Of a DNA stretch of 54,775 nt, positions 11,419 to 47,151 are shown in pieces. A program made the position numbers and the translations under genes. Every line of letters starts with the position of its first letter. Within the stretch, counting starts at the first letter, position 1. Under the pieces are notes generated by a model. It did not search any database. It saw nothing but the letters and a program-made list of their open reading frames with translations, and was not told where the DNA came from. This stretch comes from Candidatus Heimdallarchaeota archaeon (GTDB lineage Archaea > Asgardarchaeota > Wukongarchaeia > Wukongarchaeales > JBHIFL01), in assembly GCA_046761065.1 (NCBI GenBank), contig JBHIFL010000019.1:1-54775 (forward strand), read 5' to 3'.

Positions 11419-11593
11419 GCGGGGGTCTCCGAGCCAGGTCAACGCTCAGATCTACCGAGTGGCCTATAAGGAGCAGGACTGTCCATTTCCAATCTGGAAA
11501 GATAAGGGTCTAGAGGCTCCTGTGTGGTAGCACTTCGAGGGTTCAAAAAGAAAATAAAAAAATCTTTTCTGGAAAATCCCTCCCCCCGCACCA
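11419..11593 (+). tRNA. tRNA-Leu(GAG) with three BHB introns (11442-11467 at 20b/21; 11482-11513 at 34/35; 11548-11576 at 59/60); CCA encoded
   Basis: Acceptor GCGGGGG/CCCCCGC-A-CCA. After canonical BHB cuts: GCGGGGGTCTCCGAGCCAGGTCAAAGGAGCAGGACT-GAG-GCTCCTG, long variable arm, GAGGGTTCAAATCCCTC. Confidence 0.9.
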
Positions 11594-11887
11594 TTACATA
11601 CCCATCACAAGAAATCTCATAGATTATTTTTTCATTTTTGAATAATCAATTAATCAAGTAGTGAACTATAGAGAATTTATTCGAGGCATTTATTTGGCAA
11701 TTGAGTATTATTAAATTTTTTAAAAAGCATTTTATTTTCAGATAACTCGGTCACTTGGGAGAGAAATTTAATAGGTTAAATGGGTCAGAATAGACTTTTA
11801 ACAAATTATTTTATGCGAATGAGCTATTATTCGTGTAGTAAGAAAATATTCGAGGGTAAAAGTCTCATATTTTATTTAGGGGTATGC

Positions 11888-12982
11888 ATGAAATCAATTT
11901 TTCACCGACACTTACAAAATACGATACAAGACCCCCACCAGTGTGAGGAGTGTGGTGGGACTCTGATCCAAACAAGTTCGGGTATCACATGTTCCCAATG
12001 TGGATTGGTAAATTTCCAGATGTTTGATGATCCATTATTGAAAATTTCAGAAAGGGACGAAGAGGAGACTGGGGCATTTTCTTATTATGGAGAAAGATCT
12101 CACATCGTTGATGGGATGGGAAGTTTTGTCAGTTATTATGGCGTGAAAACCTTGAGAGATGCCAAGGGAAAAAGACTTAGTCGTGCCAATGAACAAAGGT
12201 TCTTGCGACTCAAGAGGATTAATGATCTTCAATTACATACAATGAACCGGGAATCAGATTATCGAGCGCTCATGGTTCTTAATCGAATGACAAGCTCATT
12301 TCAATTAACAAAGCAAATTCGAGGTCGTGCTGCATATCTGCTTCGTGTTATGATACCATTTATAGATAAAAGCCCAGGATTAAACCGAATCATCTTAGTG
12401 GCAACGGCACTTTACATTTCAATGAGGGAAAATCCTGATGGGAATCCCATCACCCTAACCGAGTTGGTAGAGGGTTTCAAAAAGCAAGGTCATCGTATTT
12501 CAAAAAAAATAATTGTTCGGGCATTATGGACCCTCCGACCAAAGCTTTCAAGAACTTTGGATTTTAATAAAATATTGTCGAAAAGTCAGGATTATATTGC
12601 AACAGTCCTCTACAAGCTCCAAATCGCAGATAAAATAAAAAGGCGGATTAATACACGAAATGTTGATGAACAAAAATATTACCAATCTCTTTTAAAGGAA
12701 ACACGAGATTTACTTCAACGAATTCCTTATCAAGTGCGAGGAGGGCGAAATCCATATATTTTTACAGTGAGTGCCGTGTACGCCGCGGATCACATTATTT
12801 CTCGAAGAGAATTAAAAATTCGCCCTGTTCTTTCGCAAAAAGTAATAGCTGAGGCCACAAATGTTGCAGAATACAGTGTTCGAGATCATTTTGCTCAAGT
12901 CATTTCGAAGTATTTAGATATGAACCCAGGTTCCCAATACAAAGAGAAATTGAGCGGTAGGCATGCTCCTAGCAGGGTTTAG
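11888..12982 (+). CDS. Divergent transcription initiation factor IIB (TFB)-like protein
   Basis: N-terminal Zn ribbon CEECGG..CSQCGLV. Cyclin-like repeats (VATALYISMRE..PITLTEL; GRNPYI..SAVY..LSQKVIAEATNVAEYSVR). Confidence 0.8.
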   Translation: MKSIFHRHLQNTIQDPHQCEECGGTLIQTSSGITCSQCGLVNFQMFDDPLLKISERDEEETGAFSYYGERSHIVDGMGSFVSYYGVKTLRDAKGKRLSRANEQRFLRLKRINDLQLHTMNRESDYRALMVLNRMTSSFQLTKQIRGRAAYLLRVMIPFIDKSPGLNRIILVATALYISMRENPDGNPITLTELVEGFKKQGHRISKKIIVRALWTLRPKLSRTLDFNKILSKSQDYIATVLYKLQIADKIKRRINTRNVDEQKYYQSLLKETRDLLQRIPYQVRGGRNPYIFTVSAVYAADHIISRRELKIRPVLSQKVIAEATNVAEYSVRDHFAQVISKYLDMNPGSQYKEKLSGRHAPSRV

Positions 12983-12999
12983 GATCGAAGAGGGGCACG

Positions 13000-14517
13000 A
13001 TGGATCGGATTCACCTTGTGGACGAATATCCTGTGGCTCCTTATACTATTCAAATTTATAGTGGGTCACCTACAAAGTCCCTTGAAAAGCTATATGTGCC
13101 CCGTCTTGCACTAGGAAAAAGCCAAGACTTGCTTTTTCTTGATAAAATAAAAAAAGAGACCATAACAAGATTGAAGAGCTTTCAAAAAGCCCCTTATATT
13201 GTGAAACTTGAGGAGTTATCGACAGAACTTGATTATTTGATTAAAAAAGTAGTTGAAGACTTGAACATTAAAATAGACCTGTTTCTATTAAGATTTATCC
13301 GTTATCAAATCTTAGGCTTTTCTAAAATTTTGCCCCTTCTCCTTGATCAACATATTGAAGAAATCTATCTTGATAATCTCCAAACTCCTATATATGTTGA
13401 CCATGCGCAATGGGGGCGTTGTCAAACCAATATTTATCTAGCTAATGAAGACGCCCAGCGACTTATCACCCGCGCTAGAATCGAAGGAAATGCGCCCCTT
13501 AATCGGGGGAACCCCTCTTTAAAGACCGATCTGGTGACTCAAGATTTTACCACTCGAATAAGCATTGATATGGCCCCTTTGGTCATTGAAGGGATTCATT
13601 TCGACATTAGAAAGTTGTCATTACAGCCCCGGACACTTCAGGATCTTATTCAAAATCAGACACTCCCTCCTATCGTTGCTGCCTATCTCGTCTTCCTTCT
13701 CTTGCATCGTTGTAATATTGCTGTCATTGGTGAACCGGGATCTGGTAAGACAACCCTGATGAACGCTTTAGATTTATTAACTCCACGTCATTGGCGAAAA
13801 ATCACTATTGAAGATATAATCGAAAGTATTGATCAATCAAAATTGGGGTTTCATCAAGTGCGATTTAAAGTGGATCCTATAGAAAAAGAGCGCAAAACCA
13901 GCACAAAGAGTTTGGAGATAGTAAAACTTCTTCACAGATCCCCAGACTGGGTCTACCTTGGAGAGATACAGACAGAAGAACAGACTAAAGCCCTCTTTCA
14001 TGCGTTATCGACTGGGTTGAGAGGGATTTTCTCCTATCATGCCACCTCTCCTGAGCATCTTGTGATTCGTTCTACTGCACACTATAAAATCCCCCCCATT
14101 TCTCTCCATGCTTTAGATGTTATTGTACAAATGAAGAAAACATGGAAAAAAAATAAGTTACGACGTTTTGTTTACCGAATTTCTGAGATAGGAGAACTTC
14201 CAGAAGAGCAACTATCAACCGGTTTGCAAAACGCTTTCATTGAGATTAAGGATATTTTCAGGTTTCAACCCAGCACGTCTCAACTAGAACGGGTGGCAGA
14301 TCTTTACACAACCCCCACCCTCGAGCAGATTAAAACGGAACTATATATTAATAAAACCTCATTTTATAAAAAACTCAAAGCATTAAGTGGAACGCTTTCA
14401 GTCTCATATCAAACTGAAAATTTAAACCGAGACCTGAATAGAAAAATCAGAAAAGTAAACTATAATTTACCACAATTACTATTAAATATAATACACAACG
14501 AGGGAGGAAAATCTTAA
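13000..14517 (+). CDS. Type II/IV secretion (type IV pilus assembly) ATPase, TadA/UpsE-like
   Basis: PLLLDQHIEEI, Walker A GEPGSGKTT, Asp box ITIED..E, HRSPDWVYLGEI, His box GLRGIFSYHA. Confidence 0.9.
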   Translation: MDRIHLVDEYPVAPYTIQIYSGSPTKSLEKLYVPRLALGKSQDLLFLDKIKKETITRLKSFQKAPYIVKLEELSTELDYLIKKVVEDLNIKIDLFLLRFIRYQILGFSKILPLLLDQHIEEIYLDNLQTPIYVDHAQWGRCQTNIYLANEDAQRLITRARIEGNAPLNRGNPSLKTDLVTQDFTTRISIDMAPLVIEGIHFDIRKLSLQPRTLQDLIQNQTLPPIVAAYLVFLLLHRCNIAVIGEPGSGKTTLMNALDLLTPRHWRKITIEDIIESIDQSKLGFHQVRFKVDPIEKERKTSTKSLEIVKLLHRSPDWVYLGEIQTEEQTKALFHALSTGLRGIFSYHATSPEHLVIRSTAHYKIPPISLHALDVIVQMKKTWKKNKLRRFVYRISEIGELPEEQLSTGLQNAFIEIKDIFRFQPSTSQLERVADLYTTPTLEQIKTELYINKTSFYKKLKALSGTLSVSYQTENLNRDLNRKIRKVNYNLPQLLLNIIHNEGGKS

Positions 14518-14543
14518 TCTGTTTATATTAAGCTTATAGAAAA

Positions 14544-16040
14544 GTGAAACGGGGAAAGTCACGGAATATGTTCTTGATGAAGCGTATTTTAAGAAGGCTT
14601 GGCTTTATTCCCCTTGGCGCCCTTTGCCAAAAAACTTCTCAGGAAAAATATATTGATCAATACTTGGAGGAAACATTTGGTATTAATAAAAGAACCTTTA
14701 CAAATAGTTTAATTACTCTACTATTATTATCCTCTTTGTTGATGGGAAGCCTTCTTCTTTTAAGTGGAAAATCACTTATAACCAGCTCTTTAGTCTCACT
14801 TGTCTTTTTTCTTTTTTTAATAAAAATTATCGATCATCTAATTCATACTTCTTATGAGTTACAGCGAACCAGAAAAGATATCACTTCGATTCTTGTTTTA
14901 GCCGAAATTTGGGCAGTTTGGGAGATTACTGGATCTATTTTTGATCTAATTCGATATATAACTCGAGGAAATTATCCAGAACTTTGTGAAAAATGGCAAC
15001 AGCTTCTCATAGACATCAATCTTGGCATGGATCCGGAGAAATCTCTTAGGAAGTTTTTTAAAAAAAATCAATATTTCGAGCTTGATCATGTAATTACTAT
15101 CCTACTTCACAGATCAACACCAGATGAAGCAATTTCCTTAAAGATTGAGGAAATCAAGAGGAATCTCCATGCCCGCTATTTATCAGGATTACAAAAACTC
15201 TCAGATCTGACCTCATTGATAATCGGAGCCAACGGAATTTTACCAATTAGTCTAATTTTAATCTTTTTGATTGCTGGTTTGGGAAATACTCCATTGATCA
15301 TGATCATTCCCACTCTAACAACGTTTCTTACGGCACTTGTTCTTCATCTTGGATTTCAAAACTTCTTTTTAGATCAGTCAAAAGAACACATACTCCAAGA
15401 GAATGAACTCGGTTGGTTTTTATTAAATCTCGGGAGAAAACTCGAAAAAATAGATTGCCAAGAGATTGCTCTCACAGATTTATTATTCGAAGAGGATACT
15501 TCATTCAAAATTGACTCCGAAACCATGGCAGATATTGTATATAACTTGGAAAATACACCACTTCTTGAAAAAACCTTTAATAAATTCCCAAACATCCGTA
15601 ATACAGCACGATTATGTGATAAATTCCTAACACTAGATGTTAGAATTGCTGCCAATAGCATTAAAAAGATTGGTGCCACATTAAATGAGAATAGTTCAAT
15701 TAAAATAAAAGTCCAAAAAGCTATTGATGCTGAGAAGAACCGTATAAAAATGATTCAAGCAATAAATGCTCCAATATTGGGGCTTTTAATATCTATAACC
15801 CCTATACTTTCGCTTATAGGAAATGTTCGCGACTTAGGGAGCCCAAACCTATTGATTTTTCCAAATATCACCCCTTGGTGGGGCCTAATGGCATCAGTAA
15901 GTATTATAATATTAGGGGGCATATACACGCTTAGGAAGCTTTCAGGCAAGACACTAGATACTGTTCAGCTCGGCTTTAATCTCATTCTATTTGTCAGCGC
16001 CTTTTATATCGGTACAAGCTTTATATCTCAACTTTACTGA
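14544..16040 (+). CDS. Type II secretion F / TadC-like membrane platform protein
   Basis: Several hydrophobic segments; DINLGMDPEKSL motif typical of T2SSF; directly downstream of the ATPase. Confidence 0.7.
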   Translation: MKRGKSRNMFLMKRILRRLGFIPLGALCQKTSQEKYIDQYLEETFGINKRTFTNSLITLLLLSSLLMGSLLLLSGKSLITSSLVSLVFFLFLIKIIDHLIHTSYELQRTRKDITSILVLAEIWAVWEITGSIFDLIRYITRGNYPELCEKWQQLLIDINLGMDPEKSLRKFFKKNQYFELDHVITILLHRSTPDEAISLKIEEIKRNLHARYLSGLQKLSDLTSLIIGANGILPISLILIFLIAGLGNTPLIMIIPTLTTFLTALVLHLGFQNFFLDQSKEHILQENELGWFLLNLGRKLEKIDCQEIALTDLLFEEDTSFKIDSETMADIVYNLENTPLLEKTFNKFPNIRNTARLCDKFLTLDVRIAANSIKKIGATLNENSSIKIKVQKAIDAEKNRIKMIQAINAPILGLLISITPILSLIGNVRDLGSPNLLIFPNITPWWGLMASVSIIILGGIYTLRKLSGKTLDTVQLGFNLILFVSAFYIGTSFISQLY

Positions 16041-16074
16041 AAAACCCCCTCGTTAAGAATCATTAAAGAATTAA

Positions 16075-16180
16075 TGGTGCCCCGTGGGGGATTTTCCCCG
16101 AAACACACAATGTTTCGATTTTGAACCCCCGTCGCGAGATCGAGAGTCTCGCATGCTTGACCGTGCTACACCAACGGGGC
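16075..16180 (-). tRNA. tRNA-Glu(CTC) with a 28-nt BHB intron at 59/60 (16092-16119); CCA encoded
   Basis: Reverse complement: GCCCCGT..CGAGA-CT-CTC-GA-TCTCG..GGGGGTTCAAA[ATCGAAACA..TGTTTCGGGGAAAA]TCCCCCACGGGGCACCA. Confidence 0.93.
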
Positions 16181-16568
16181 TTTACACTTTCGGTTTTTTA
16201 GATATAATTTTATTTTTTCAATTATACCTATCAATTGAGGTGAAAACCCTTTTAATATCACAGATAGTGGACCTCCAATTCTAAAACTTTTGAAGATCCT
16301 ACCTCTAAAAACACTGCTTTGATACAAAACTGATAGGCTAGATTATCTAGGTTTCCTCCTTAAATGTTCCTTTATTAACTTTGTTTTATTTAATCTGTCC
16401 ATATTTTAGCTTATTGTGAATCATTTGAAGTGAGTGGATATTCCTATTTTAAAAACGCATTCAAATCCTCTATGAACAAAAAATCTATCTGAGTCCTTGA
16501 AATCCAACTCTTGAAGATTGAAGTCTAGTGTGTGACTTATAGATTTTTTATTTTTTAAACATTGAAAG

Positions 16569-17294
16569 TTATGCAAGACTTTTAGTGTTTTTAAAGGATA
16601 TTATGCGGCGTAAAAGCCCAATAAGTGTATGAAGTTCTCGCCCCGTTAAATAACTTCGCCCCAAGATGCTTTTAAAAACCATTCTAGCAATCTGTTGTTT
16701 GTGAGCTGGATACTTAATTCGTTCAAGGAGATTCATAAAGACATTTAATGCAACCTTTTTTTCCATTCTATTCCCAAGCCGATATTTTTTGGGAGTGAAG
16801 GGGATCCAAGCTCTATAAAGAACGTACAAAACAATTGCTACAGCGTTCACTAAATTCAGTGTTGAATAGCTTGAGGCGGTAGGTATTGTCATCACTACAT
16901 CACATTGCTCTAATTCAATATTTGTAAGACCAGAATCTTCCCTACCGAATATAATGGCAATTTCCCCACGATAATCACAGAGAGGAATAAGTTCTTCTGG
17001 AGGGATAGCTATACGTTGGAGATTATAATCACCACCAATATTGGAAGTTGTTCCAATGGCTAGATCCATGTTTTCTATTGCACTTTTAAGAGAAAAAGTG
17101 ATCTCAGCCGAGTCTAATACTTCCTGAGCATGCATGGCAAAGCGTCTAGTGATTTCAGCATCTAAATCCACTTGAGAATTGACTAGCACAAGCGAACACA
17201 TATCAAAGTTCTTAATCACACGTGCGATAGCTCCTACACTCATTTCATATTTTGGTTCTACTAGCACTATATGAAATCGAGGGGTTTTTTGCAT
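16569..17294 (-). CDS. trmJ: SPOUT tRNA methyltransferase TrmJ family
   Basis: IVLVEPK..GAIARVIKNF..AMHA..IFGREDSGLTN..LNLVNAV. Confidence 0.9.
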   Translation of the reverse strand: MQKTPRFHIVLVEPKYEMSVGAIARVIKNFDMCSLVLVNSQVDLDAEITRRFAMHAQEVLDSAEITFSLKSAIENMDLAIGTTSNIGGDYNLQRIAIPPEELIPLCDYRGEIAIIFGREDSGLTNIELEQCDVVMTIPTASSYSTLNLVNAVAIVLYVLYRAWIPFTPKKYRLGNRMEKKVALNVFMNLLERIKYPAHKQQIARMVFKSILGRSYLTGRELHTLIGLLRRIISFKNTKSLA

Positions 17295-17367
17295 ATTGCC
17301 ACCTCAAAAATGCACATCGAAAAGAATAAACAATATTATAAATCGTTCAATCCTAGAATTTTTCGTC

Positions 17368-18291
17368 TTATAGCTGTAAAATTTCGGTGAAAGAAATTCC
17401 ATGAGATTGAAAGGAAACATGTAAATTATTAAATAACTGCAAGATTTCATGAGAATAAAGATGTAAAGGGCGTTTATCTTGCATCATGAGAAGATAAAGT
17501 ACTTTCTCAACTAGACAACTAATATGCTTGCCGTGACGCTTGAAATAAGGAATTAAATTGTTCACAACTTTTTTGTTTTTCCTAGAGAACAAAAGGGTAA
17601 GAAATTTTTCAAACAGATCTAAATTGATCTTAGGGATGTCTCTCCGAGGAGTTATCTTGACAATAGCAGATGTAATGTTTGGGGAGGGAAAGAACGCCTC
17701 CCGGCTTAGTTTGCGTAGCAATGTTGTTTTAAAAAAAAGGGTAGATTGAACGGAAATCCGGCTATATTCACGATCTCCAGCAGATGCTAGTAATCGTTGG
17801 GCGAATTCGAGTTGATATGTTATTATAGCTTCACTGAATTTTTCCCGAGTTAACTTCAATGTAATTGGACTTGAGATTTGATATGGTAGGTTGGAAACTA
17901 ATTTGTCAAACTGAGGCCATTCTATATTACAAGCATCTCCTGGGAGAATTACAACATTACTGAAATCTCTTAATAAAATCGACAAAATTTCAATCAAATT
18001 GTGATCATTTTCAATTATTATTAACTGTTTTGCTTTTGAAGCTAAAAATAATGATAGGGTACCGATCCCCCCCCCAATTTCCATGATAATTTCATCCGAC
18101 TTAGGATTGGTATTTAAAAGTATAAATTTAAGAACTTCGGGGTTAATGAGAAAATGTTGTCCCTTTTTTCGCCGAGGTCGAAATCCATAAGCTGAAAGGA
18201 TGTTCTTGGTAAATTGCAGCAATTCAGATTTTGTAATTTGATCTGGATCACATGGGAGTAGACTTCTTGCGAGCTCAATTCGATTCTGCAA
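17368..18291 (-). CDS. ksgA: 16S rRNA m6,2A methyltransferase KsgA/Dim1
   Basis: GQHFL..EIGGGIGTLS..VSNLPYQISSP..QLEFAQRL. Confidence 0.93.
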   Translation of the reverse strand: MQNRIELARSLLPCDPDQITKSELLQFTKNILSAYGFRPRRKKGQHFLINPEVLKFILLNTNPKSDEIIMEIGGGIGTLSLFLASKAKQLIIIENDHNLIEILSILLRDFSNVVILPGDACNIEWPQFDKLVSNLPYQISSPITLKLTREKFSEAIITYQLEFAQRLLASAGDREYSRISVQSTLFFKTTLLRKLSREAFFPSPNITSAIVKITPRRDIPKINLDLFEKFLTLLFSRKNKKVVNNLIPYFKRHGKHISCLVEKVLYLLMMQDKRPLHLYSHEILQLFNNLHVSFQSHGISFTEILQL

Positions 18292-18490
18292 ATTATTTTC
18301 AGTCCTTTAATTATATTCCTTCATTTCAACCCAGAAAAGTTTCTTTATCTATTAATGAAGAAAGAATTAATCTTCTAACTGTCTTTAGGTTCTTAGGTAA
18401 TACAATTCATTCAGCAGATTAAAAAGATAATAAGAATAATATAGCTAAAAAGGATCCAATTCTAACTAAAATTGTGAAAGGCTTCAAACT

Positions 18491-19099
18491 TTATTCTGGT
18501 GGGGTGAAGAGTCTATATTTTTCATTTCCTTCAAGTTCTGATAAGATTCGCCCCCAAATTATTTTTTGGGGGTCAGATATGCCACATCTTTTACTTAAAT
18601 CAGAATAATCAACGAATGGGGCCTTTTTTCGCTCTTCAATTATACGCCACATATTTTTCTTTCCAATTCCTGGTAGGAGTTCTAATTGGTGCATTCTGGG
18701 AGTGATTGGGACTGCTGAATTGAAGAAATCAATGAAGTCGGCCTCTCGTTTTGTTAAAATGGTTTTGATAACATTTGGTAATTCAGATTTCGCTGTGAAA
18801 GTTAAATCATTTGCTTTTAATCGTCTCTTAACATGATTTACCACATCTCGCCCACCTCGTCCGATCTTGATCCGATCTAATGGTTGTAAACTTTGATTAC
18901 GTTTCACAATCAGCTCTAAAAGAGTAAAGAATGATTCACCAATAGCCTGAATTATTGGTTCACGTTGATGACGTGAACGTGGATCTGAAGGATAACCCTC
19001 AGGAAGGAAATCCAAGACATAAACAAATTCTTCATATTTTTTTCTTTTTTCAGGTCTGCGAGCACTTTTCAATATTTTCAACTCTTCTAGTACTGACAT
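18491..19099 (-). CDS. DUF655 family putative RNA-binding protein
   Basis: YEEFVYVLDFL..QAIGESFFTLLEL..RMHQLELLPGIGKK; conserved position next to rpo4. Confidence 0.9.
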   Translation of the reverse strand: MSVLEELKILKSARRPEKRKKYEEFVYVLDFLPEGYPSDPRSRHQREPIIQAIGESFFTLLELIVKRNQSLQPLDRIKIGRGGRDVVNHVKRRLKANDLTFTAKSELPNVIKTILTKREADFIDFFNSAVPITPRMHQLELLPGIGKKNMWRIIEERKKAPFVDYSDLSKRCGISDPQKIIWGRILSELEGNEKYRLFTPPE

Positions 19100-19135
19100 A
19101 AATAATGAAGTAGGACAAATAACCCAAATAGGAGA

Positions 19136-19471
19136 TTAATCCACTTCTTCGATATATTTAAAGATCGCATTGAGCTTGGTCCGATCCAAGTTAGGATATC
19201 GCTCAGAGATAATACTTTTGAGCTCTTCTAATGTTTCAGGAAGTATATTACAAATTTGAACAGCCGACTCCAAATCCAAGTCAAAATCAGCCTGTAATCT
19301 TGCGATTAGACGAGATGCTTGATCTGCACTCAATCGGGAAAATTTTGTTGCATGATCAAGAGCAACACGCTGGGTATAATTAAAATTCCCATCTTCTGCG
19401 CGTTGTTCCAACATCGCCTTTACTTCCGAGATAGCCAAAGGCTTTTGTTTCAAAATCTTTCTGGGCACCAC
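19136..19471 (-). CDS. rpo4: RNA polymerase subunit Rpo4 (RpoF)
   Basis: YTQRVALDHATKFSRL..AVQICNILPETLEELKSI. Confidence 0.92.
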   Translation of the reverse strand: MVPRKILKQKPLAISEVKAMLEQRAEDGNFNYTQRVALDHATKFSRLSADQASRLIARLQADFDLDLESAVQICNILPETLEELKSIISERYPNLDRTKLNAIFKYIEEVD

Positions 19472-19495
19472 TTCGCCTCCTTAAATTCAATGGTG

Positions 19496-19789
19496 TTACA
19501 ATTGAGGACGTAAGTGTTCTGGTCGAGAAATAATGAGTTTTTCTCGTCCCATATCTTTTATGTTTATTAGATACGATCTTCCCCGTTTTCCCACAATTTT
19601 TCCGGTTTTTCCGTGAAATCGACGGTGTGGACGTCCTTTTTGAACACTTGGTTCAAGAATCACTGTTACTCTATCACCATTCGTATATTCTCGCAATATT
19701 ACACTAAGTGGCGGCATTCCTTTCTTACGAACAGACTTTTTTAGGAGGTTGCGAGATTTAAACCATGTTCCCTTTGATTTACGAACCAT
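19496..19789 (-). CDS. rpl21e: 50S ribosomal protein eL21
   Basis: MVRKSKG..PSVQKGRPHRRFHGKTG..RPEHL. Confidence 0.96.
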   Translation of the reverse strand: MVRKSKGTWFKSRNLLKKSVRKKGMPPLSVILREYTNGDRVTVILEPSVQKGRPHRRFHGKTGKIVGKRGRSYLINIKDMGREKLIISRPEHLRPQL

Positions 19790-19793
19790 ATAA

Positions 19794-21134: not shown

Positions 21135-21708
21135 ATTCTATGTTCAACACTGAAGGTACTACACAGAGATTAAACGTGAAAGGAAAGTAAATCTTCCCAA
21201 AGAGAGGAAAATAAGATTCTAAGTTAGCCTTATCTGTCGATGGGACTCCTATTTGAATTAAATATTGTTCGTCTTTTGGAAGTGAAGTAAGACTTAGAGT
21301 TTGATCCCCATGTTCCACAATAATAAGTGAAAATTGATTAAGGGTGGCTCTCAATTCTTCTAGGCTTTTAAAGATTCTGATGCCTGACCGTTGGAAAAAC
21401 AAGTGATTTAATCGTCTTTTACACACTAACTTGATAGCTTTATCGAGGATTAATAGGATAGACCGAAAATCAGGTCGCATATTGCGAAGTCTATTCGAAG
21501 AAATTTGAATTATCTTATAGATATCATCTGATAAAATTAAAAAAACATTAACATCCTTGCGAATATCATGTGATAAGAAGAGCGATGAATAAACAAATAA
21601 CGGAAGAGAATAAGCATTCTTTCGGTAGTCAGATTTTGGGAAATTTAATTCACGCTTCGAAAAACGTAAGCTGGAAGCAGGAATGTACCTAATATAGTTA
21701 CGCGTCAA
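21085..21708 (-). CDS. TrmY-like SPOUT protein (tRNA pseudouridine-54 N1-methyltransferase homolog), divergent
   Basis: SLFLSHDIRKDV and LRNMRPDFRS resemble TrmY motifs; syntenic with pus10; the C-terminal SAM-knot motif is poorly conserved. Confidence 0.65.
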   Translation of the reverse strand: MTRNYIRYIPASSLRFSKRELNFPKSDYRKNAYSLPLFVYSSLFLSHDIRKDVNVFLILSDDIYKIIQISSNRLRNMRPDFRSILLILDKAIKLVCKRRLNHLFFQRSGIRIFKSLEELRATLNQFSLIIVEHGDQTLSLTSLPKDEQYLIQIGVPSTDKANLESYFPLFGKIYFPFTFNLCVVPSVLNIEFDRSQIFDRRVDSATQ

Positions 21709-21934
21709 GAACTGTCATCTCGAACCTATTCCTAAAAATATAAGAAAAGTATTCGGAGTTTACAGAAATTATTTTGTTTTTTAACAAATTTTACATAAGG
21801 AAGGGATTATGTTCGGAGAATAGGGTACTCCGAATAAACTGTCTGGGAGAAGCATCAAATACACGTCTGTGAAATGGGAGCCACCCTGATATTATTTGAC
21901 AATGTTATAAGTATCTTTCAAAGGATTATCTCTG

Positions 21935-22983
21935 ACCTCCTCCCCACCCTGAAGGGTTGAGGGTTCCGAGTTCGCTCGCGTTCGGGGCGGTGCCTCCTTG
22001 GGGGGATGAGTGCTCCCCTCGCATCTACCTCTTTTTGCATGCGATTGAGCAATACTTGGACGGCCTGTGATATTGAACGCCGCATTCACATCCGCATGCC
22101 CAAGCTGTCCACACTGGGGACAAAAGAACGCTTTCTCATTTCGAGTGCCTAGGTGTCCACACCGGCTACACGTTTGCGAAGTATAGACAGGATCAACATA
22201 GATGACGGGGATTTTTAGCAGCTTGGCTTTGTATTCTATCATCTGTTGGAGTTGATAGAACGACCAACTGTGCAAGGAATAGAGAAATGAGCGCGTTGAT
22301 TTGGCGGTTTGGCGAACCCCATTTAATTGTTCCATTTTTAAGCCGAGCTTGCTGAGCTAGAGTCATGCGTTTTCGGCTGATTTTATGGTTCGTGTCCCGC
22401 ATGATCCGCCGCTCGCGATCCTTGACCTTCTTGACCAGTTTGTAGGCTCCAGCTTTCTGCAGCTTCTTCCGGTGGTTCTAGTATTTCTTGTGGATATGCT
22501 CGCATTTTTTGCCGAGTTTCCATCTTTTCCTGTCGTAGGATTGGCAAACACCGCGAAATGTCCTGTAGTGTTGAGATCTACCCCAAGATAGCCCTTCGGC
22601 TACATAGGGGGTTGTTCAGGAATGGTCACTGCCACATAGATGTAGGTGTCCCCTACCTCAATTTGGTTAATCTTCTCAAAATGGTTAGGGAACTCCTAGT
22701 GGGAGGAGAACTTCAAGCAAGGTACTCGAATGAGCCGCTGGGCTTAATCCCCTTTAATCCCTTGATTGGGAATGGTCAATTTAACCGACGGCACCCGTTT
22801 GATGGTTTTATTTCGCCCATATTTCCACAAAATTTGGTTGGCAATCATAGACTTGAGTCCCAAATGCTTGACGTCTTTCTAGGAGAAGATACGATGTTTA
22901 AGGGTAAATACCGCCACTTGCCGGGCTTTGCGAAGGTCTTTCGAGAAGTCCCAGGTATGTTTAGCTTTGTAGGTGAGAATCAT
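21935..22983 (-). pseudogene. tnpB: TnpB, disrupted by stops and frameshifts
   Basis: Starts MILTYKAKH overlapping the tnpA stop; early TAG. RuvC and Zn-finger pieces (HKISR; [38 protein letters not shown]) lie in different frames. Confidence 0.88.
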
Positions 22984-36759: not shown

Positions 36760-37167
36760 GATTATCTACGCTTAAGTTCCATTAGGAGATAAGTAAAAGT
36801 TAGAACGCTATAAATTAAGTATTTATGATCTTTTATCATTCGATTATTTAGGATTTCTGACTATTATGAACTACTCTTAAGACCTCTTGTTTATTTTGAT
36901 TGTCTATCTTGAACTGGTTTCAACTGAATATTCTTTATAAGACTTGATAAACATGTTACGGCGTTATCCTTAAATAAAAGAGCATTATATACATTCTATT
37001 TACTATTATTAAGCACAAACGCTTGCAAAATCCTATAAAAGCTTAAGAAAACATTTAGTTGGGCAGACTATCTAAAAAAAGGATTAAAAATTCAATTGTT
37101 TCTTCTTAATTTGAATAACATATGGAATAAAATTCTTAAAGGATAATGAAAAGAAGATATCTAAACT

Positions 37168-37310
37168 GCGGGGGTCTCCGAGCCTAAGATTAAAATGTAA
37201 ATCTTCTCGAAAGGTCAAAGGAGTGGGGTTCAGGTCCCCATGGCGTAGGCCTTCGAGGGTTCAAAAAAGATAACGATTGTTCTCTCTTGAAATTCCCTCC
37301 CCCCGCACCA
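37168..37310 (+). tRNA. tRNA-Leu(CAG) with two BHB introns (37185-37211 at 17/17a; 37266-37293 at 59/60); CCA encoded
   Basis: TGGGG-TT-CAG-GT-CCCCA with long variable arm. D-loop BHB: CGAG-CCT-AAGATT..AATCTT-CTCG-AAA. T-loop BHB: TTCA-AAA..TGAA-ATT. Confidence 0.93.
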
Positions 37311-37369
37311 CTTACTTATTATTGAAATAAACCGTGAAAAATTAATGAAAACATCCTTTTTTTACTCAT

Positions 37370-40090: not shown

Positions 40091-40303
40091 ATAACCCTTA
40101 TTTTGTTCCTATGAAAGTTTAAAAAGACCATCCATGTATTGAGATGAAACACTCTTAAAAGAAATTAAGACAATAAATCAATCAAGAGAAGATGCAATTC
40201 CCATTAAAAGTGAGAATTTCGAAAAACTATTAATAAGAAGTTTTCTCCCAAAAAAAGGAAACCCTTTCCCTGATCACTTGTTGATAACTTGTGTAACCAA
40301 TGT

Positions 40304-41608
40304 TCATTCTTTCATGAATTCGCGTAGAACAATTGTGGCATAACTTCCTTTCTCTAGGCAGAATGAAAGATTGACTATGACATCTTCATTTGGTAAAGCT
40401 ATGATTTGTGTTTTCAATTTGTGTGGGAAACAGGATATCCTTCTGAGACTTCCTAATGAAGTAAGCCTTCGATTATTTTTCTTGAATAAATCTGAATGAA
40501 TATTTTCGGCTTGGAGAATTTTATTAAAGATCTCACCTGGAAATTCTCGTGGGATAAGGGATTTATAGCCGATTAAGGGCCCCATGACGTATGTTTTTCC
40601 CTTTTTAACTAAGTTTTTATGCATTTCAACGTTATTTTTTGTGATATATTCTATTTTTTCCTTGAATTGTACCAAATCGCCTGGTAACGGGTTCTGCCAC
40701 GAATCGAAGCATTTTATTCTTTCACTTATGTACTTGTTAAAAAGCCAAGATTGATATGCATGAATGAAGAGTGATAAAATGCGGCGAGGGAATATAGATA
40801 GAACTCCATTAAAATCATTTGGTCTTCTTGATAAAAACTGTAAAATACGTCTTTCGTAATGAAATTTCTTTGGGATTTCTTCCAATATTTTGTTAAAATT
40901 ATGTTCTTCACAAATCTTTTCTCTTATTACTTGTATTTGCACGGGCTCGTTTGGAGAGGTTTTCGATAAATAGAGCATTATTGCATCTTTTATCTGACCC
41001 ATAAGGAGTGCTTTTCCAATTAAATGGGAAATTAATCTTTTACCAAAGCGTTGCGGGCCAAAAAAGTTAGGAACTCCAATATTTCCTATTTCCTCTTTAA
41101 TATGTTGAATTCGCTCTAAAATTTGATTTTTAGGTATTTTGATATTTCGAATTCGTATTTTGAATTGATTTCCCCAGAGGTCCCCAAGTTTCACTCCGTA
41201 ACGAGCTGGATAAGCTGTTAATATACGAATCCTTTTAAATTTAGAAAGTTTTCTCCAAAGATCCCTTGGTGTTACTTTCCAAACAGACATTCTTTGTATC
41301 GCTATTGCGTGTTTATCTTTGTTTCCTGCATACCCAATATCATCTATTGAGATTCCAAGTTTTTGAGCAATCAATTGCGCAGTTTCAGGAGTGTCTACCC
41401 CTTCTTTTCGTATAACAAGATGTGTAAACAACCCTTTTGCGTCTCTGTTCAGACTCAGTTCGTTAACTCGTTGGAAACCTTCTTCGTATGGAATTAGCTC
41501 TTCTACTATGAAATCTTCTGAACGGCTCCTAATTTTCCCTCCAACTCCCTTCATGCTTGTTGAAAACCCTTCTATTCCTATGGAACTATTCGTTTGCGAG
41601 GAACACAA
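40304..41608 (-). CDS. truD: tRNA pseudouridine(13) synthase TruD
   Basis: EDFIVEE..YAGNKDKHA..GNQFKI..PNFFGPQRFG..GSYATIVLRE. Confidence 0.95.
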   Translation of the reverse strand: MCSSQTNSSIGIEGFSTSMKGVGGKIRSRSEDFIVEELIPYEEGFQRVNELSLNRDAKGLFTHLVIRKEGVDTPETAQLIAQKLGISIDDIGYAGNKDKHAIAIQRMSVWKVTPRDLWRKLSKFKRIRILTAYPARYGVKLGDLWGNQFKIRIRNIKIPKNQILERIQHIKEEIGNIGVPNFFGPQRFGKRLISHLIGKALLMGQIKDAIMLYLSKTSPNEPVQIQVIREKICEEHNFNKILEEIPKKFHYERRILQFLSRRPNDFNGVLSIFPRRILSLFIHAYQSWLFNKYISERIKCFDSWQNPLPGDLVQFKEKIEYITKNNVEMHKNLVKKGKTYVMGPLIGYKSLIPREFPGEIFNKILQAENIHSDLFKKNNRRLTSLGSLRRISCFPHKLKTQIIALPNEDVIVNLSFCLEKGSYATIVLREFMKE

Positions 41609-41619
41609 AACAATTCATC

Positions 41620-41997
41620 TCAAAGCAGTTTCATTTCCTTCGTGATTTTATCTAGATCATTTTCAGGTGCAGGACCTATACCTAATGCTGTCACAGTTCC
41701 TTGAGGAAGTTGTGTTAATCCTTGGTCTTTGATTAAAACAACTGGAATATCTAAAACTCTTGCATGCTCCTCTTTCGAGAGCAGAAGTTCAAGGGAATCT
41801 GTCCGTATAACAATTTTCTTCTGCCCCAATTCAATCCATTGCTTGAACCATTCTGGTTTGAGCCATTGCGCTTTATTGGAAGCCGAAACAGCAGCATGTG
41901 CCACTTGGGCAGCTATTTTTCCTTTTCCCATTTTAAGATCAGTTCTTACGATGATTACTTGTTTCATCTCCAATTTCTGCACCTTCTTAGAAGACAA
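41620..41997 (-). CDS. pth2: Peptidyl-tRNA hydrolase Pth2
   Basis: KQVIIVRTDLKMGKGKIAAQVAHA..GQKKIV..GLTQ..GIGP. Confidence 0.95.
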   Translation of the reverse strand: MSSKKVQKLEMKQVIIVRTDLKMGKGKIAAQVAHAAVSASNKAQWLKPEWFKQWIELGQKKIVIRTDSLELLLSKEEHARVLDIPVVLIKDQGLTQLPQGTVTALGIGPAPENDLDKITKEMKLL

Positions 41998-42240
41998 TGC
42001 CTACTTATAATGGAAATCCAAAAAATCTAATTTCCCTCAAGAAAGAAATTCTCTATTCATAATAATCATGAAGGCAATAGATATTATTTACTCTGATAAT
42101 TACGTTTAATCAGCCTTTGTGAAAAGAAGTTTTTTTGGCTATGACATAATGAATCTTGGAAACTACAAAACACTTTTAATTAAGTACTTTACACGAAGTT
42201 AAAGTATAAAGCACGAACAAAAAATTGAGGCTCTTAATTT

Positions 42241-42420
42241 ATGGCTGAGATTACAATGCCCCGATGTTCCTGTTGTTCTCGCCCGATCTCTCCAGGAGAT
42301 ATAGGAACTGTTAGTTTCGGATGCCCAGTGTGTGGGATTCTCTCCATTGTTCGTTGTTCAAAATGCAGACGACTCGGTAATACATATAAATGCCCTAATT
42401 GTGGTTTTGTCGGCCCCTAA
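42241..42420 (+). CDS. Small Zn-ribbon protein (HVO_2753/DUF1610 family; not in ORF track)
   Basis: Manual translation MAEITMPRCSCCSRPISPGDIGTVSFGCPVCGILSIVRCSKCRRLGNTYKCPNCGFVGP*; usual position upstream of EF-1beta. Confidence 0.9.
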   Translation: MAEITMPRCSCCSRPISPGDIGTVSFGCPVCGILSIVRCSKCRRLGNTYKCPNCGFVGP

Positions 42421-42459
42421 TACACCTAATACTACTTTTATAAAATCGGAGATGAATAA

Positions 42460-42732
42460 ATGCCAAAAATACTTGCTCAATTAAAAATCCTACCAACAGG
42501 CCCTGACGTAGATCTCAATTTAATTCTAGAAACTATCAAGGGTTTTGAAACCGAAGACATCATGATACGTGGTCATACTACACAGCCTATAGCTTACGGA
42601 TTGGTAGCTATTAAATTAACAACAATTATTGAAGGGGAACAAGGATCAAAAGTTCTAGACCAATTAGAAGATAAAATTCAGGCTATTAAAGATGTTTCCC
42701 AAGTTGAAACTGAAGCTGTATCTCTCCTTTAG
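42460..42732 (+). CDS. ef1b: Elongation factor 1-beta
   Basis: LKILPTGPDVDL..PIAYGLVAI..VSQVET. Confidence 0.92.
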   Translation: MPKILAQLKILPTGPDVDLNLILETIKGFETEDIMIRGHTTQPIAYGLVAIKLTTIIEGEQGSKVLDQLEDKIQAIKDVSQVETEAVSLL

Positions 42733-43059
42733 ATTAATTAAAGATCTTTTTTTGATTTAGTACCAACAATTTCACTACAATGGATGACTATTATAGATAT
42801 ATATTATCAAGAATATAGATCCCCATTTAGTCTATTATCCAATAGAATGGACATATGATTTGTAAAAATGATAAAGGAGTGTTGATCTTAAAAAACAGCA
42901 AACTGAAAATGATTGTGCATGATCCTCGTATTCAATTCACTATTATAATATTAAATTAAATTGAATAAAATAACTTATCTTTAAGATCATATTTCTCTTT
43001 TTAATAGATTTCTCCCCTCCAAGAACAGTAGTTTATTACATGTGATAAGAAAAGTAATA

Positions 43060-43314
43060 TCAAGAATTGGGAAGTTTTACTAGTTCTGCTGCAATCATAT
43101 CCCAAGGAACAGCTCTAATTTTGAGATTTGCTTCTGCATCAACTTCTACATCATTCAGCTCAATATTTTGAGGTTCAACATTATTTGTCAGATATTCCCT
43201 TATTTGGGCAACAGCTGGGCGTAATTCACCAAATAATGTTATTTCTCTATCTTTTTCACCTTTTAATACTAGTATGAAAAAGCGATCATCAATTTTGAAA
43301 CTCACATCGATCAC
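43060..43314 (-). CDS. Hypothetical protein
   Basis: 84-aa ORF with protein-like composition; no recognised family. Confidence 0.55.
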   Translation of the reverse strand: MIDVSFKIDDRFFILVLKGEKDREITLFGELRPAVAQIREYLTNNVEPQNIELNDVEVDAEANLKIRAVPWDMIAAELVKLPNS

Positions 43315-43509
43315 CTTTTGGTATTACTGTCAATTGTGAACTTTTTATTGTGTATTTTTCTTTTTATATTCATTTGGCGTCTGTGATTTGGTTTCCTAAT
43401 CCCACTATATCAATAATATTTTATTGTAGACTGTTTTTGATGTTTAAAATGATCAATAATTTTCAGTCATTGAAATACCTATTTGAGTGCGTAAGGATAA
43501 ATTAGATGT

Positions 43510-44031
43510 TTATTCTTCCAAAAATATTCGAATATGTCGTTGAAGAAGTGCATAAGTAGCCTCTTGAAGCATTTCCTCGCTCATGGGTAGATCTCTCACA
43601 TCAATTCGTCTTATACGTACCTTGAATTCTTCACTCCCATCAGGCACAAAAATCTTATTAACTCCTAGTACTTCAACTGGTGAAAATAGAGATTCAATAA
43701 TTTTTCGTTCAGACTTAGCGAATTCGATCACATGAATCTTTTGTCCGAGTTTTTGTTCAATTTCGTTAAGAATACGTCTGTTTGATCCAATAATATTTGA
43801 AATATCCTGCTTTCGGACCTCTAAAAGCACAAAAGAATCAACTGCGACGGCACGAGTAATTTTTACATTTTGAAGTGATGGATACTTGTTAGCTATTTTG
43901 CTGAGAATCTTGGATAATTCGATATCAAGTTGAGTAATTTTTCCATCGGCTAATTTTCGCTGGCAGCCTGTACATAGCATACCTGTTTTTGCACAAAAGG
44001 AACATATTGGGAGTTCCATCAGTTCCACCAA
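43510..44031 (-). CDS. NusA-like KH-domain protein with N-terminal Cys motif
   Basis: LPICSFCAKTGMLCTGC..IIGSN..LFSPVEVLGVNKIFVPDG. Confidence 0.85.
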   Translation of the reverse strand: MVELMELPICSFCAKTGMLCTGCQRKLADGKITQLDIELSKILSKIANKYPSLQNVKITRAVAVDSFVLLEVRKQDISNIIGSNRRILNEIEQKLGQKIHVIEFAKSERKIIESLFSPVEVLGVNKIFVPDGSEEFKVRIRRIDVRDLPMSEEMLQEATYALLQRHIRIFLEE

Positions 44032-44136
44032 TAAGCATACTATTTGGAGTTTGATTAGGCATTCGTTTGCACATGAAGATACAGATCATGCCCCTTTGCA
44101 ACTCCGAATATCACAAATAGTTTTTTCAGCTCTCAT

Positions 44137-44418
44137 TTAAGAGTCCTTTTTTAGAATAATATCAATAGTGCTACTATTGATCACACGTCCTTCCTTTGTT
44201 GTTATTTTTTCTGTACCAATATCGATGTTTTTTATACTAACATTTGTTGTAAACCGATTTCTAACAACTTCCGCAACATCAACTGCACGACTAATTGCTT
44301 TTCCTCGGGCCCTAATACCAATTTCTTCCTTCCCAGAATGAAAAAGCGTCATACAAGCCAGAATATAACTTAGGAGTGGTTTGTCTCCAATGAATACAAC
44401 ATTTTCATCTCTAGTCAT
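44137..44418 (-). CDS. albA: DNA/RNA-binding protein Alba
   Basis: VFIGDKPLLSY..RARGKAISRAVDVAEVVRNRF..IGTE. Confidence 0.95.
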   Translation of the reverse strand: MTRDENVVFIGDKPLLSYILACMTLFHSGKEEIGIRARGKAISRAVDVAEVVRNRFTTNVSIKNIDIGTEKITTKEGRVINSSTIDIILKKDS

Positions 44419-44939
44419 GAGTTTCAACCTCATACATGGCCTCAAAATCTTTTAATGTTATGTTTGCATGTTATGATTTTGATCTGTTTCATTGAATGTT
44501 TACTATTTATTACCTGATTCAATAGCACCCACTCTTCCAGCTTCTTGGGTTCTGGGGTGAATAAATTGAGTCTTCAATAGAAGAGGATTTAGGCTCTATG
44601 AAAAAAATATCTATATCGACAAAGATAGAAGTATAAAGGCAATACACCGATGACCAGACTGGAACATCTTGTTTATAACTAGAATTCGCAATTGATAATA
44701 GGAGTTACAACAGTTAAATTACAGAGAAGACCAAAAATCCATATGCCTCTAGTATCCTTTTATAGGATCCTGCAATAATAATCTTTAACAATACAGAATC
44801 GCCTTATTTCAGGTTTATGACAGGTCAATAAAGAGCAATTTTAAAACCAGAAGATATATTCTTGAAAATACTTCATGGAAATAAGCACTAAACAAAGATC
44901 TTTCAACATGATGGTAGAAAGATAAGGAGTTGTATTTTT

Positions 44940-45098
44940 ATGCCAGTTCATGATCCAGAAAAAAGAGAAATCGCACGATCTGTGCTTTTACATGTTGCGA
45001 TTTGTCGAAAATGCTATGCTCGGAATCCTGTTAATGCAAAAAAATGTCGACGTTGTCGTAGTACACGATTGAGAAGAAAAAAGACCGAAAGAACTTAA
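44940..45098 (+). CDS. rpl40e: 50S ribosomal protein eL40 (not in ORF track)
   Basis: Manual translation MPVHDPEKREIARSVLLHVAICRKCYARNPVNAKKCRRCRSTRLRRKKTERT*. Confidence 0.93.
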   Translation: MPVHDPEKREIARSVLLHVAICRKCYARNPVNAKKCRRCRSTRLRRKKTERT

Positions 45099-45317
45099 TA
45101 AATTGTACTAATTGTAGGATGGGAAAAAGAACTGATGTTGAACCATTAACCCTTTTAAATGCCTGTTATAAATTCTGAAAGAAAATTAAGCTACCGATAG
45201 ATCTTATAATGGGATTGTTTATGTAAAAACAAATTAATTATCAAAAGAATTAAATAAAATATTCTTCAAAAACAAACTATTAAAAAATAGATGCAGATAA
45301 AATAATAAAAAGAAATT

Positions 45318-45839
45318 GGGCGGGTGGTCTAGTTCGGTTATGACACTAAAGTGATGGCATAAAGCCGCGCTCACACCGCGGAGGTTCGTGGGTTCGAAAC
45401 AGTGGAGTTGTCAAAATGAGGAAGTTTAGTAACTACGAATGTAGAATTATTGAGAGTGTGCTAAATTTTGATGGTTCTATTACTTGTGAAGTGACAAGAC
45501 AATAGCTACAGTGGTTGTTTCTGAAATTATTCGTGTGTCGTTTTCCTATAAATCAAAAGAATTTCTAAAATGACTAAGAGAATTCTTGGTTGTAGGCATA
45601 AATTCACTCGGAAAAAAGATGAGAAATGCTACATGTTCGCAATCGGATAAACCAATTCAAATGATTACTATAACAGATCAAGCTTGTGGTAAAAAAGGAT
45701 AAATAAAGGTTGCACTGAAATTAATTCGATTTAAAGCACAACAATTCAAAGACACAAGGATAACTTACCTAATTAGTATAAATAGGAAATTGATAACTTA
45801 ATAGAGCAATTCTACACTGCGTAAATCCCACCCCGCCCA
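45318..45839 (+). tRNA. tRNA-Val(CAC) with a 19-nt intron at 25/26 (45345-45363) and a 427-nt intron at 59/60 (45399-45825)
   Basis: Acceptor GGGCGGG(45318)/CCCGCCC-A(45832-39); anticodon arm CCGCG-CT-CAC-AC-CGCGG; T arm GTGGG-TTCGAA|T-CCCAC split by the long intron with terminal BHB. Confidence 0.88.
45416..45801 (+). pseudogene. Decayed LAGLIDADG-like homing endonuclease inside the tRNA-Val intron
   Basis: ATG after GGAG: MRKFSNYECRIIESVLNFDGSIT (LAGLIDADG-like helix), then frameshifted pieces IRVSFSYKSKEFLK*LRE, ILGCRHKFTRKKDEKCYMFAI, LL*QIKLVVKK, VALKLIRFK. Confidence 0.7.
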
Positions 45840-46106
45840 CTACATTGCAATGCAGTTAATAAATTTTGAAGAATTTGAAAGGAAAGTATGAACATTAGAT
45901 GTTTCCATAGAAATGCCATCAGGAAATATAATTTCATATTATTCTGGATATTTTAAAAAAGTTAAGTAATAGTTAAAGATCTGTCTATTTGCAATTGATC
46001 TAGCTGAAGCAGATCCATTATTTTTTAGGGGATTATAGGAGTGTGGAAAACTGGAATGGATATATTTTCTACTATTAAAAACAAATTGTATACAATTTCT
46101 GAAACA

Positions 46107-46301
46107 CTAGAGATCAATAATTGGTAGTTTTATACGCTGTAGGATTATATTTGCTTCTTCTGGAGAACTTTTTAGTGTATAAAGTCTCTTTTTTGTTCTA
46201 AGTTTTAATTTGACAATATTTCCGCGTCTTTTCACGCGACACTCCGTTGCTCTAGTAGATATCTCAAGGAATTCCTCTGGGACAAATATTTCTTGGGGCA
46301 A
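46107..46301 (-). CDS. rpl38e: Ribosomal protein eL38
   Basis: MPQEI..EFLEI..CRVKR..VKLKLRTKKRLYTL. Confidence 0.88.
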   Translation of the reverse strand: MPQEIFVPEEFLEISTRATECRVKRRGNIVKLKLRTKKRLYTLKSSPEEANIILQRIKLPIIDL

Positions 46302-46351
46302 AATAGTCCCTCACAATTTCTGCATGAAAATTTTATTTACCATACATTATA

Positions 46352-46780
46352 CTAATTTTGTTCTCTTGCGGCGATAATCTTTGTATGATTCATGATGATC
46401 CAATAGTCAACCTCTACAGGTTTTCCAGCATTAAACAAGGATATTATTTTGTTACGAACATTCTCCTCCTCCGGTAATACTGTTTCAAAGGTATTATACT
46501 CTTCATTGTCCATAACTTGGATGCTATCTCCTGCCACCGATGTTATCAGGCCTGTACGCTTATCTATTATGGGAATATTGACTCTTGTGCTAACAGGCCC
46601 AACAAATTCTCTTTTTCGACCGTCAATAACACCAACCATTACGATTCGAGCCTTTGCGGAACCGTGTTTGCCAGGTTTTGACTTATCAATACTTAAAATC
46701 TTACATGGCTCATTAGACTTAGGATCTATCATATAACGACCTTCTTTTAGGTCACCAGCTGTTGTGGGGCGAGTTGACAT
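46352..46780 (-). CDS. eif5a: Translation factor aIF5A/eIF5A
   Basis: Hypusine loop SKPGKHGSAKAR. Confidence 0.96.
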   Translation of the reverse strand: MSTRPTTAGDLKEGRYMIDPKSNEPCKILSIDKSKPGKHGSAKARIVMVGVIDGRKREFVGPVSTRVNIPIIDKRTGLITSVAGDSIQVMDNEEYNTFETVLPEEENVRNKIISLFNAGKPVEVDYWIIMNHTKIIAAREQN

Positions 46781-47015
46781 AAACCTCTACATCCCTAAAC
46801 TGCAATGTCATCTTTCTTGTTTTATTTTTTTGGTTATTTTATTTTACATTTTTTTCTAAACTACTCTTTAGGTACATATTTCTCTAACGGATCCAATTTA
46901 TTGTATAAATGAAATACGGTAGCACATATAGGTTAGGATGAGATCTGTCCCTTGAGGATTGGAGAATGATAAGAAATATAGTTAAGAATTAATGATATAG
47001 AATGTTTAAATATTG

Positions 47016-47151
47016 TGCGGGCGCCGGGATTTTCAAAAAAGGTTTTCACCTTTTCATTTGAACCCGGGTTAGAAGCTTTCTCCGTTTATAATGGGAGGCT
47101 TCATTAAGGGAGGAATTATCTCTGTCCTCGACCAGACTAGACCACGCCCGC
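47016..47151 (-). tRNA. tRNA-Gly(CCC) with three introns (47104-47123 at 25/26; 47078-47091 at 37/38; 47030-47056 at 59/60); CCA not encoded
   Basis: Spliced reverse complement: GCGGGCGTGGTCTAGTCTGGTCGAGGAC-T-GAAGC-CT-CCC-AA-GCTTC-TAAC-CCGGGTTCAAATCCCGG-CGCCCGC-A. Each insert has a 4-bp helix flanked by 3-nt bulges or loops. Confidence 0.92.

Follow-up and report, generated by a model that had tools for sequence, protein, structure and literature searches.

In Atabeyarchaeia and Freyarchaeia, 92–95% of transfer RNA (tRNA) genes are interrupted (Valentin-Alvarado et al., 2024; PMC11291895). The annotated introns of Asgard archaea are concentrated at position 37/38 and in the T-arm, have been gained repeatedly and in a lineage-specific manner, and are strongly enriched for the bulge-helix-bulge (BHB) motif, with no detected signal of copying between tRNAs, of mobile elements or of reverse transcription (Goswami et al., 2026; 10.64898/2026.10.13.758758). 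Here we describe a 54,775-nucleotide (nt) stretch of DNA from a Candidatus Heimdallarchaeota archaeon (contig JBHIFL010000019.1; hereafter, the window) with five split tRNA genes, all of which have an intron at position 59/60 of the T loop. The longest of these introns (427 nt), in the gene for tRNA-Val(CAC), is quite probably a decayed LAGLIDADG homing-endonuclease intron.

The tRNA genes of this organism resemble those published for other Asgard archaea in that most are interrupted, often by several non-canonical BHB introns; the introns concentrate at 37/38 and in the T-arm, they have been gained in a lineage-specific way, and the genes escape standard tRNA finders. The organism represents a separate lineage, however, and its 59/60 introns outnumber those at 37/38 by about two to one. 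Furthermore, the published accounts give no route of intron arrival, which Goswami et al. (2026) call "the central open problem", and homing endonucleases go unmentioned in their text. The heavy interruption of Asgard tRNA genes and the T-arm hotspot are, then, already published. New here, as read from the sequences, are a series of Val intron alleles of 427, 167, 106 and 0 nt and a perfect LAGLIDADG motif in one of them.

Archaeal ribosomal RNA (rRNA) genes offer a second comparison. Their LAGLIDADG introns (I-DmoI type) are also BHB introns bearing an open reading frame (ORF), and the 16S rRNA intron loci of Thermoproteales include endonuclease-coding introns, remnants and short hairpins of less than 50 nt (Jay and Inskeep, 2015; PMC4496867). 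As at the Val locus, several such forms occur at one site and intron-less alleles exist. By analogy, the Val case would match these loci; it differs in that the host is the T loop of a tRNA (59/60) and the ORF is broken in every allele found. In the literature searched, no published description of endonuclease-bearing BHB introns in tRNA genes was found. Many non-canonical BHB introns per lineage are also a feature of the tRNA intron transposition described in Thermoproteales (Fujishima et al., 2010, as cited in PMC4090602), yet the near-identical introns across tRNA types that define it, as cited there, are absent from this genome. Position 59/60 is itself a known site of BHB processing in the permuted tRNA genes of Thermofilum pendens and Cyanidioschyzon merolae (PMC3218864). 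Those genes are circularly permuted, whereas the genes described here are collinear with an intron.

T-loop introns in the window, the genome and related archaea

Neither ARAGORN nor the Rfam tRNA model called a tRNA in the intact window. For the Val, Leu, Gly and Glu structures, we enumerated candidate BHB introns around GGTTCRAA motifs, excised them in silico and repeated the ARAGORN search. All five genes were recognized solely after intron removal, which restored a cloverleaf and a sensible anticodon (Table 1). The sequence of all five reads with an insert between A59 and T60, at the junction of GGTTCRAA with TCC. An earlier note, made from the letters alone, had reported a T-loop intron in each gene, with sizes of 29, 28, 28, 427 and 27 nt, and a total of 11 introns with only one at the canonical 37/38 site; both the sizes and the tally were re-derived exactly, and the canonical intron is in tRNA-Gly(CCC).

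The window is contig C19 of a 4.42-Mb metagenome-assembled genome (MAG) of 234 contigs, with 91% completeness and 8.2% estimated contamination, and its proteins (e.g., L19e, Cdc6 and TruD) are archaeal. We scanned the whole genome for tRNA anchors (T-stem, TTCRA, complementary T-stem and paired acceptor) and identified 28 tRNA genes with a T-loop insert, 27 of them with inserts of 27–34 nt and one, the Val gene, with 427 nt. The same scan returned 16 genes without an insert, to which intact T-arm matches and ARAGORN added about 5–6. Of the roughly 50 tRNA genes, 28 or more (about 55–60%) thus have the 59/60 intron, and 13 isotypes or more are represented, so that tRNAs carrying the intron form the majority rather than the exception. 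The earlier note had named absence of the intron from most other tRNAs as an outcome that would refute its proposal, and this outcome was not observed. An approximate tally from an automatic parse gave 28 introns at 59/60, 14 at 37/38 and about 17 in the D-arm, making 59/60 the most used site, with about twice the count of the canonical one. Furthermore, a split-T-loop pattern had 19 matches in the genome versus none for its reversed control, an excess over chance. An ARAGORN call of "tRNA-Ala(cgc)" with a 455-nt intron elsewhere in this genome (contig C1, 63240–63788) lies within coding sequence and was rejected as false; several further ARAGORN calls in the genome look equally doubtful.

The T-loop introns of the window fold (RNAfold, RNAalifold) into a T-stem, a 4-base-pair (bp) UUCA:UGAA helix, two 3-nt bulges and an inner hairpin. 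This hBHBh' arrangement appears in the minimum free energy, centroid and consensus folds, and the Gly(CCC) consensus spans four lineages with wobble and compensatory changes. Among the 28 T-loop introns of the genome, in which the T-stem forms the outer helix, the central helix in the 59/60 register has all four pairs in 16 and three of the four in the other 12. The folds and this pairing check uphold the earlier suggestion that U54–R57 serve as the BHB helix. The genome encodes two EndA paralogs (PF01974 loci of 105 and 66 bits) and one RtcB (534 bits).

These features are those of ordinary archaeal BHB introns, which the tRNA-splicing endonuclease would excise from the pre-tRNA. The two EndA paralogs would fit the broad-specificity alpha-beta type of endonuclease, and RtcB would rejoin the exons. 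Position 59/60 is the T-arm structural twin of 37/38, with a 5-bp stem, a 7-nt loop and a cut between loop nucleotides 6 and 7 in both. In the T-arm, the near-invariant U54-U55-C56-R57 pairs with a YGRA close to the 3' end of the intron to form the 4-bp central helix; the T-stem provides the outer helix and a small hairpin within the intron the inner one. The T-loop introns are presumably spliced out in this manner.

By uL18 and eL40, the closest relatives with a name are MAGs that bear the labels Thor-, Hod- and Heimdallarchaeota, and the lineage is taken here as Heimdall/Hod-related. Among the species genomes compared, this one is alone in its family and has two others in its order. When an encoded CCA was required, the split-T-loop pattern matched in 224 of the 400 genomes of the phylum, with near-zero counts for reversed-pattern controls. 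The highest count was that of the genome described here (19), followed by families f16 (up to 15), f12 and f22 (up to 9 each). Without the CCA requirement, an f16 genome (G313) had 32 matches (control, 3) compared with 31 (control, 12) in this genome. The two genomes of the same order (G001 and G002) have about two real split T-loops each against 32–39 intact T-arm motif matches (controls, 7–8). The 59/60 expansion is therefore lineage-specific, and other Asgard families underwent theirs independently. Although G313 has about 30 split T-loops elsewhere, intact T-arm motifs are tightly clustered on its contig C1 (155–242 and 19566–19884), which suggests arrays of tRNA genes that lack T-loop introns; the arrays may be part of a mobile element.

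The short T-loop introns of tRNA-Leu(CAG) and tRNA-Gly(CCC) keep their length and structure, with wobble and compensatory changes, in relatives at 66–90% protein identity. The short introns are therefore old and structurally constrained, in contrast to the Val intron, which is in flux.

The long intron of tRNA-Val(CAC) and its alleles

We recovered alleles of the Val intron from a metagenome scan with the Val exon sequence and from look-ups of the neighboring eL40 protein. The metagenome contigs are collinear with the window and share 66–91% protein identity with it. Samples containing this family are ERZ23499174, ERZ23498930, SRR29324583, SRR29324603, GCA_012975005.1, GCA_046758425.1 and Ga0114921. 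Besides this genome, an independent Logan assembly (L035, run SRR29324583) has the 427-nt allele; the 167-nt allele occurs in seven assemblies from two lineages and the 106-nt allele in two assemblies; in one relative (L029) the gene is uninterrupted at this site (GGGTTCGAATCCCAC). The 167- and 106-nt alleles have ends identical to those of the 427-nt intron, and alignment A1 resolves the shorter forms as single internal deletions that keep the same 5' end (about 36–90 nt) and 3' end (about 65 nt). The inner helix of the intron is CAGTG/CACTG and the central helix, TTCG:CGTA, has three of four pairs. The Val intron thus appears to be shrinking through internal deletions that leave the splice-site ends intact. 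Comparisons of eL40 and TruD gave an unrooted grouping of this genome with L030 and L046 versus L029 with L031.

The intron-less Val(CAC) gene (L029, positions 936–1045 of Ga0114921_10026387) encodes its CCA and retains the D-arm intron, while the Val alleles that bear the T-loop intron have no encoded CCA. This single case has the pattern expected of 3'-biased intron loss via the cDNA of a mature tRNA.

Within the window, the Val intron has a GGAG followed by an ATG at 45416, 17 nt into the intron, that opens an ORF broken by stops and frameshifts (first piece, 45416–45502). In the L046 lineage the ORF reads MQMFSDYERGFIEGVLDFDGSIT... and contains the motif IEGVLDFDGSI. IEGVLDFDG matches LAGLIDADG at the glycine and acidic positions and has hydrophobic residues at the aliphatic ones; the window copy of the motif is degenerate (IIESVLNFDGSI). 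A pattern of 11 positions drawn from the motif has one match in the 8.84 million six-frame codon positions of the genome. Furthermore, the L046 ORF has a single match in the PDB, to the LAGLIDADG helix of I-MsoI, which likewise lies at the N-terminus, and a profile of four intron ORFs aligns (hhalign, P = 0.0049) with a profile of 12 Asgard LAGLIDADG ORFs at the motif. The differences from the L030 allele are mostly non-synonymous, which indicates that the ORF is dead in all alleles. Taken with the allele series, these matches make it quite probable that the Val intron is a decayed LAGLIDADG homing-endonuclease intron.

The endonuclease relic that the earlier note had read in the long intron is undetectable in the window copy alone and gains credibility from the better-preserved alleles of relatives. 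Searches with the window relic by tblastn and blastn against the genome, and against PF14528 and PF00961 in six frames, returned nothing, and neither did hmmscan (Pfam) or phmmer (PDB) with its ORF pieces. The best score of 16 Asgard LAGLIDADG ORFs against the relic in tblastn was 18.1 bits, compared with 19.1 for a shuffled sequence. The intron ORF profile retrieved chance-level matches alone from the 400 Asgard genomes (such as TetR-like proteins), protein word searches with the ORF gave no match, and the 3'-end pattern of the intron was not found in the databases of viral contigs or genome contigs.

The single match of the motif pattern in this genome is an intergenic 87-amino-acid (aa) frame on contig C1 (about 139529–139789, plus strand), which begins with a clean LAGLIDADG sequence (YFTGIIDGEGCL) and then degenerates. 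It has a weak PF00961 match, and no tRNA or rRNA context was seen around it.

Possible arrival and decay of the 59/60 introns

We consider it likely that the T-loop introns represent a lineage-wide build-up of EndA-spliced 59/60 introns, most of them old and stable hairpins, plus one decaying LAGLIDADG intron in tRNA-Val. The Val intron would formerly have been mobile, and the same decay, taken to its end, could have left other short T-loop introns. Several points weigh against this reading. An ORF trace is present in just one of the 28 T-loop introns, so decay of the others is an extrapolation. Pfam models match no piece or allele of the Val intron ORF, no allele has an intact ORF of about 150–250 aa, and no intact endonuclease homolog was found in the genome, the 400 Asgard genomes or protein databases. 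The I-MsoI match (E = 0.83) is by itself not significant, and the motif pattern was composed after seeing the sequence, which makes the figure of about 4e-5 matches expected per 167-nt intron generous. Furthermore, L029 could have lost the intron precisely instead of retaining an ancestral empty site, and the estimated contamination of the MAG (8.2%) makes the total of about 50 tRNA genes an approximation. The collapse of an endonuclease intron, as the earlier note envisaged it, is visible in the Val series, with its three sizes and an empty site, and not in the short introns of other isotypes; conservation of the Leu(CAG) and Gly(CCC) introns in relatives speaks against hairpins of about 28 nt as fresh collapse products.

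It is unlikely that a free-standing LAGLIDADG gene entered the hairpin loop of a pre-existing short Val intron, which would make the endonuclease a mere passenger. The conserved ends (about 36 nt at 5' and about 65 nt at 3') do behave as a unit apart from the deleted core, free-standing LAGLIDADG ORFs do occur in Asgard genomes (one of them 100 nt from tRNAs with T-loop introns), and this genome has a stray LAGLIDADG fragment in an intergenic region. However, the ORF starts just 17 nt into the intron, right after GGAG, and L029 lacks the whole intron and not merely the ORF. None of the 16 free-standing Asgard LAGLIDADG ORFs inspected is inside a tRNA intron. Two of the surroundings are worth recording. 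On contig C95 of genome G314 (L013, 1000–2450), three adjacent tRNA genes each have a short T-loop intron, and a free-standing 277-aa LAGLIDADG_3 ORF lies about 100 nt downstream on the opposite strand. A second LAGLIDADG_3 ORF (L014) is located just 3' of a 23S rRNA gene.

The introns could also have arrived by another route and been kept for breaking the tRNA 3'-half attachment sites used by virus and plasmid integrases. Protection from integration has been hypothesized before (Randau and Soll, 2008, as cited in PMC4090602), and the region from the T-arm to the 3' end, a typical attachment region, is where the intron sits in most tRNA genes. No integrated element was seen at an intron-free tRNA, for which no dedicated test was made. 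Moreover, protection leaves the choice of exactly 59/60 unexplained, which the BHB geometry explains. As an account of these introns we find it improbable, although it is compatible with the build-up and decay that we favor and does not exclude them.

The earlier note had proposed a homing sweep, in which one endonuclease-bearing intron homed on the invariant T-arm DNA of many isotypes and its copies then collapsed to hairpins of about 28 nt. If true, this would provide a first mechanistic explanation of how Asgard archaea gain non-canonical tRNA introns. The sweep would account for the same site being filled in at least 13 isotypes, for an expansion that is lineage-specific relative to the genomes of the same order and for the one T-loop intron (Val) that has a LAGLIDADG relic and is seen collapsing; the rRNA loci with coding, remnant and hairpin forms provide a precedent (Jay and Inskeep, 2015). 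The intron sequences, however, are unrelated between isotypes. The ends of the Val intron recur in no other T-loop intron, and the mean pairwise identity of the 27 short T-loop introns is 0.565, compared with 0.547 after shuffling of their interiors. The top pairs are of the same isotype (Ala-Ala, 0.81; Lys-Lys, 0.81), with a single cross-isotype pair at 0.79 (His-Gln), and the genome has no introns at least 80% identical between tRNA types, the mark of a family of the Thermoproteales kind. T-arms identical to invaded ones stay empty, such as that of Glu(TTC) in comparison with Gly(CCC), and the searches returned no intact enzyme. The Val intron changes fast whereas the short ones are old and stable, 59/60 is also used across many Asgard families, and the published Asgard census, a preprint, detected no copying between tRNAs (Goswami et al., 2026). 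The 3' ends of the introns complement TTCR and do not copy it, for which the BHB constraint suffices. A single sweep is not supported by this evidence and, for older events as well, is improbable. An origin by target-site duplication was rejected, because the intron 3' end is TGAA for A57 (the complement) and not TTCA (the copy), and CGAA for G57.

Window features and significance of the Val locus

The coordinates of the split tRNA genes and their introns are given in Table 1. Between tRNA-Leu(GAG) and tRNA-Glu(CTC), the window has three ORFs of 400, 505 and 498 aa (11780–16040). The second of these is a T2SSE-type ATPase, and its two neighbors have no Pfam match; the trio could represent an operon for a surface filament or else an inserted element. 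On the minus strand, positions 21919–22020 weakly match the HgcC family RNA (27 bits, E = 0.029, under the gathering score).

Table 1. Split tRNA genes, their introns and the eL40 anchor gene in the window.
Feature	Position	Strand	Evidence and remarks
tRNA-Leu(GAG), CCA encoded	11419-11593	+	3 introns; 85-nt Leu(gag) after removal (ARAGORN); fold
Leu(GAG) D-loop intron	11442-11467	+	
Leu(GAG) intron within or beside anticodon, 33/34 or 34/35	11482-11513	+	
Leu(GAG) T-loop 59/60 intron, 29 nt	11548-11576	+	
tRNA-Glu(CTC), CCA encoded	16075-16180	-	1 intron; 75-nt Glu(ctc) after removal (ARAGORN); fold
Glu(CTC) T-loop 59/60 intron, 28 nt	16092-16119	-	
tRNA-Leu(CAG), CCA encoded	37168-37310	+	2 introns; ARAGORN after removal; fold
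Leu(CAG) D-loop 17/18 intron, 27 nt	37185-37211	+	Kept in relatives L046 and L049
Leu(CAG) T-loop 59/60 intron, 28 nt	37266-37293	+	Kept in relatives L046 and L049
Ribosomal protein eL40 gene, just upstream of tRNA-Val	44940-45098	+	Anchor for recovering Val alleles in related assemblies
tRNA-Val(CAC), no encoded CCA	45318-45839	+	2 introns; ARAGORN after removal; alignment A1 with relatives
Val(CAC) D-arm 25/26 intron, 19 nt	45345-45363	+	
Val(CAC) T-loop 59/60 intron, 427 nt	45399-45825	+	
tRNA-Gly(CCC), no encoded CCA	47016-47151	-	3 introns; ARAGORN after removal; fold
Gly(CCC) T-loop 59/60 intron, 27 nt	47030-47056	-	
Gly(CCC) canonical 37/38 intron, 14 nt	47078-47091	-	
Gly(CCC) 25/26 intron, 20 nt	47104-47123	-	

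With the default tRNA finders, namely ARAGORN and Rfam's tRNA model, all five genes of the window go undetected, which has consequences for the annotation of MAGs. The Val locus provides a concrete and datable case in an Asgard lineage of what was probably a LAGLIDADG intron in the T loop, with an empty site in a relative and three deletion stages. Without showing a single sweep, it suggests one way in which such introns arrive, and it allows a direct test of whether an intron arrives in mobile form and then collapses to a hairpin.

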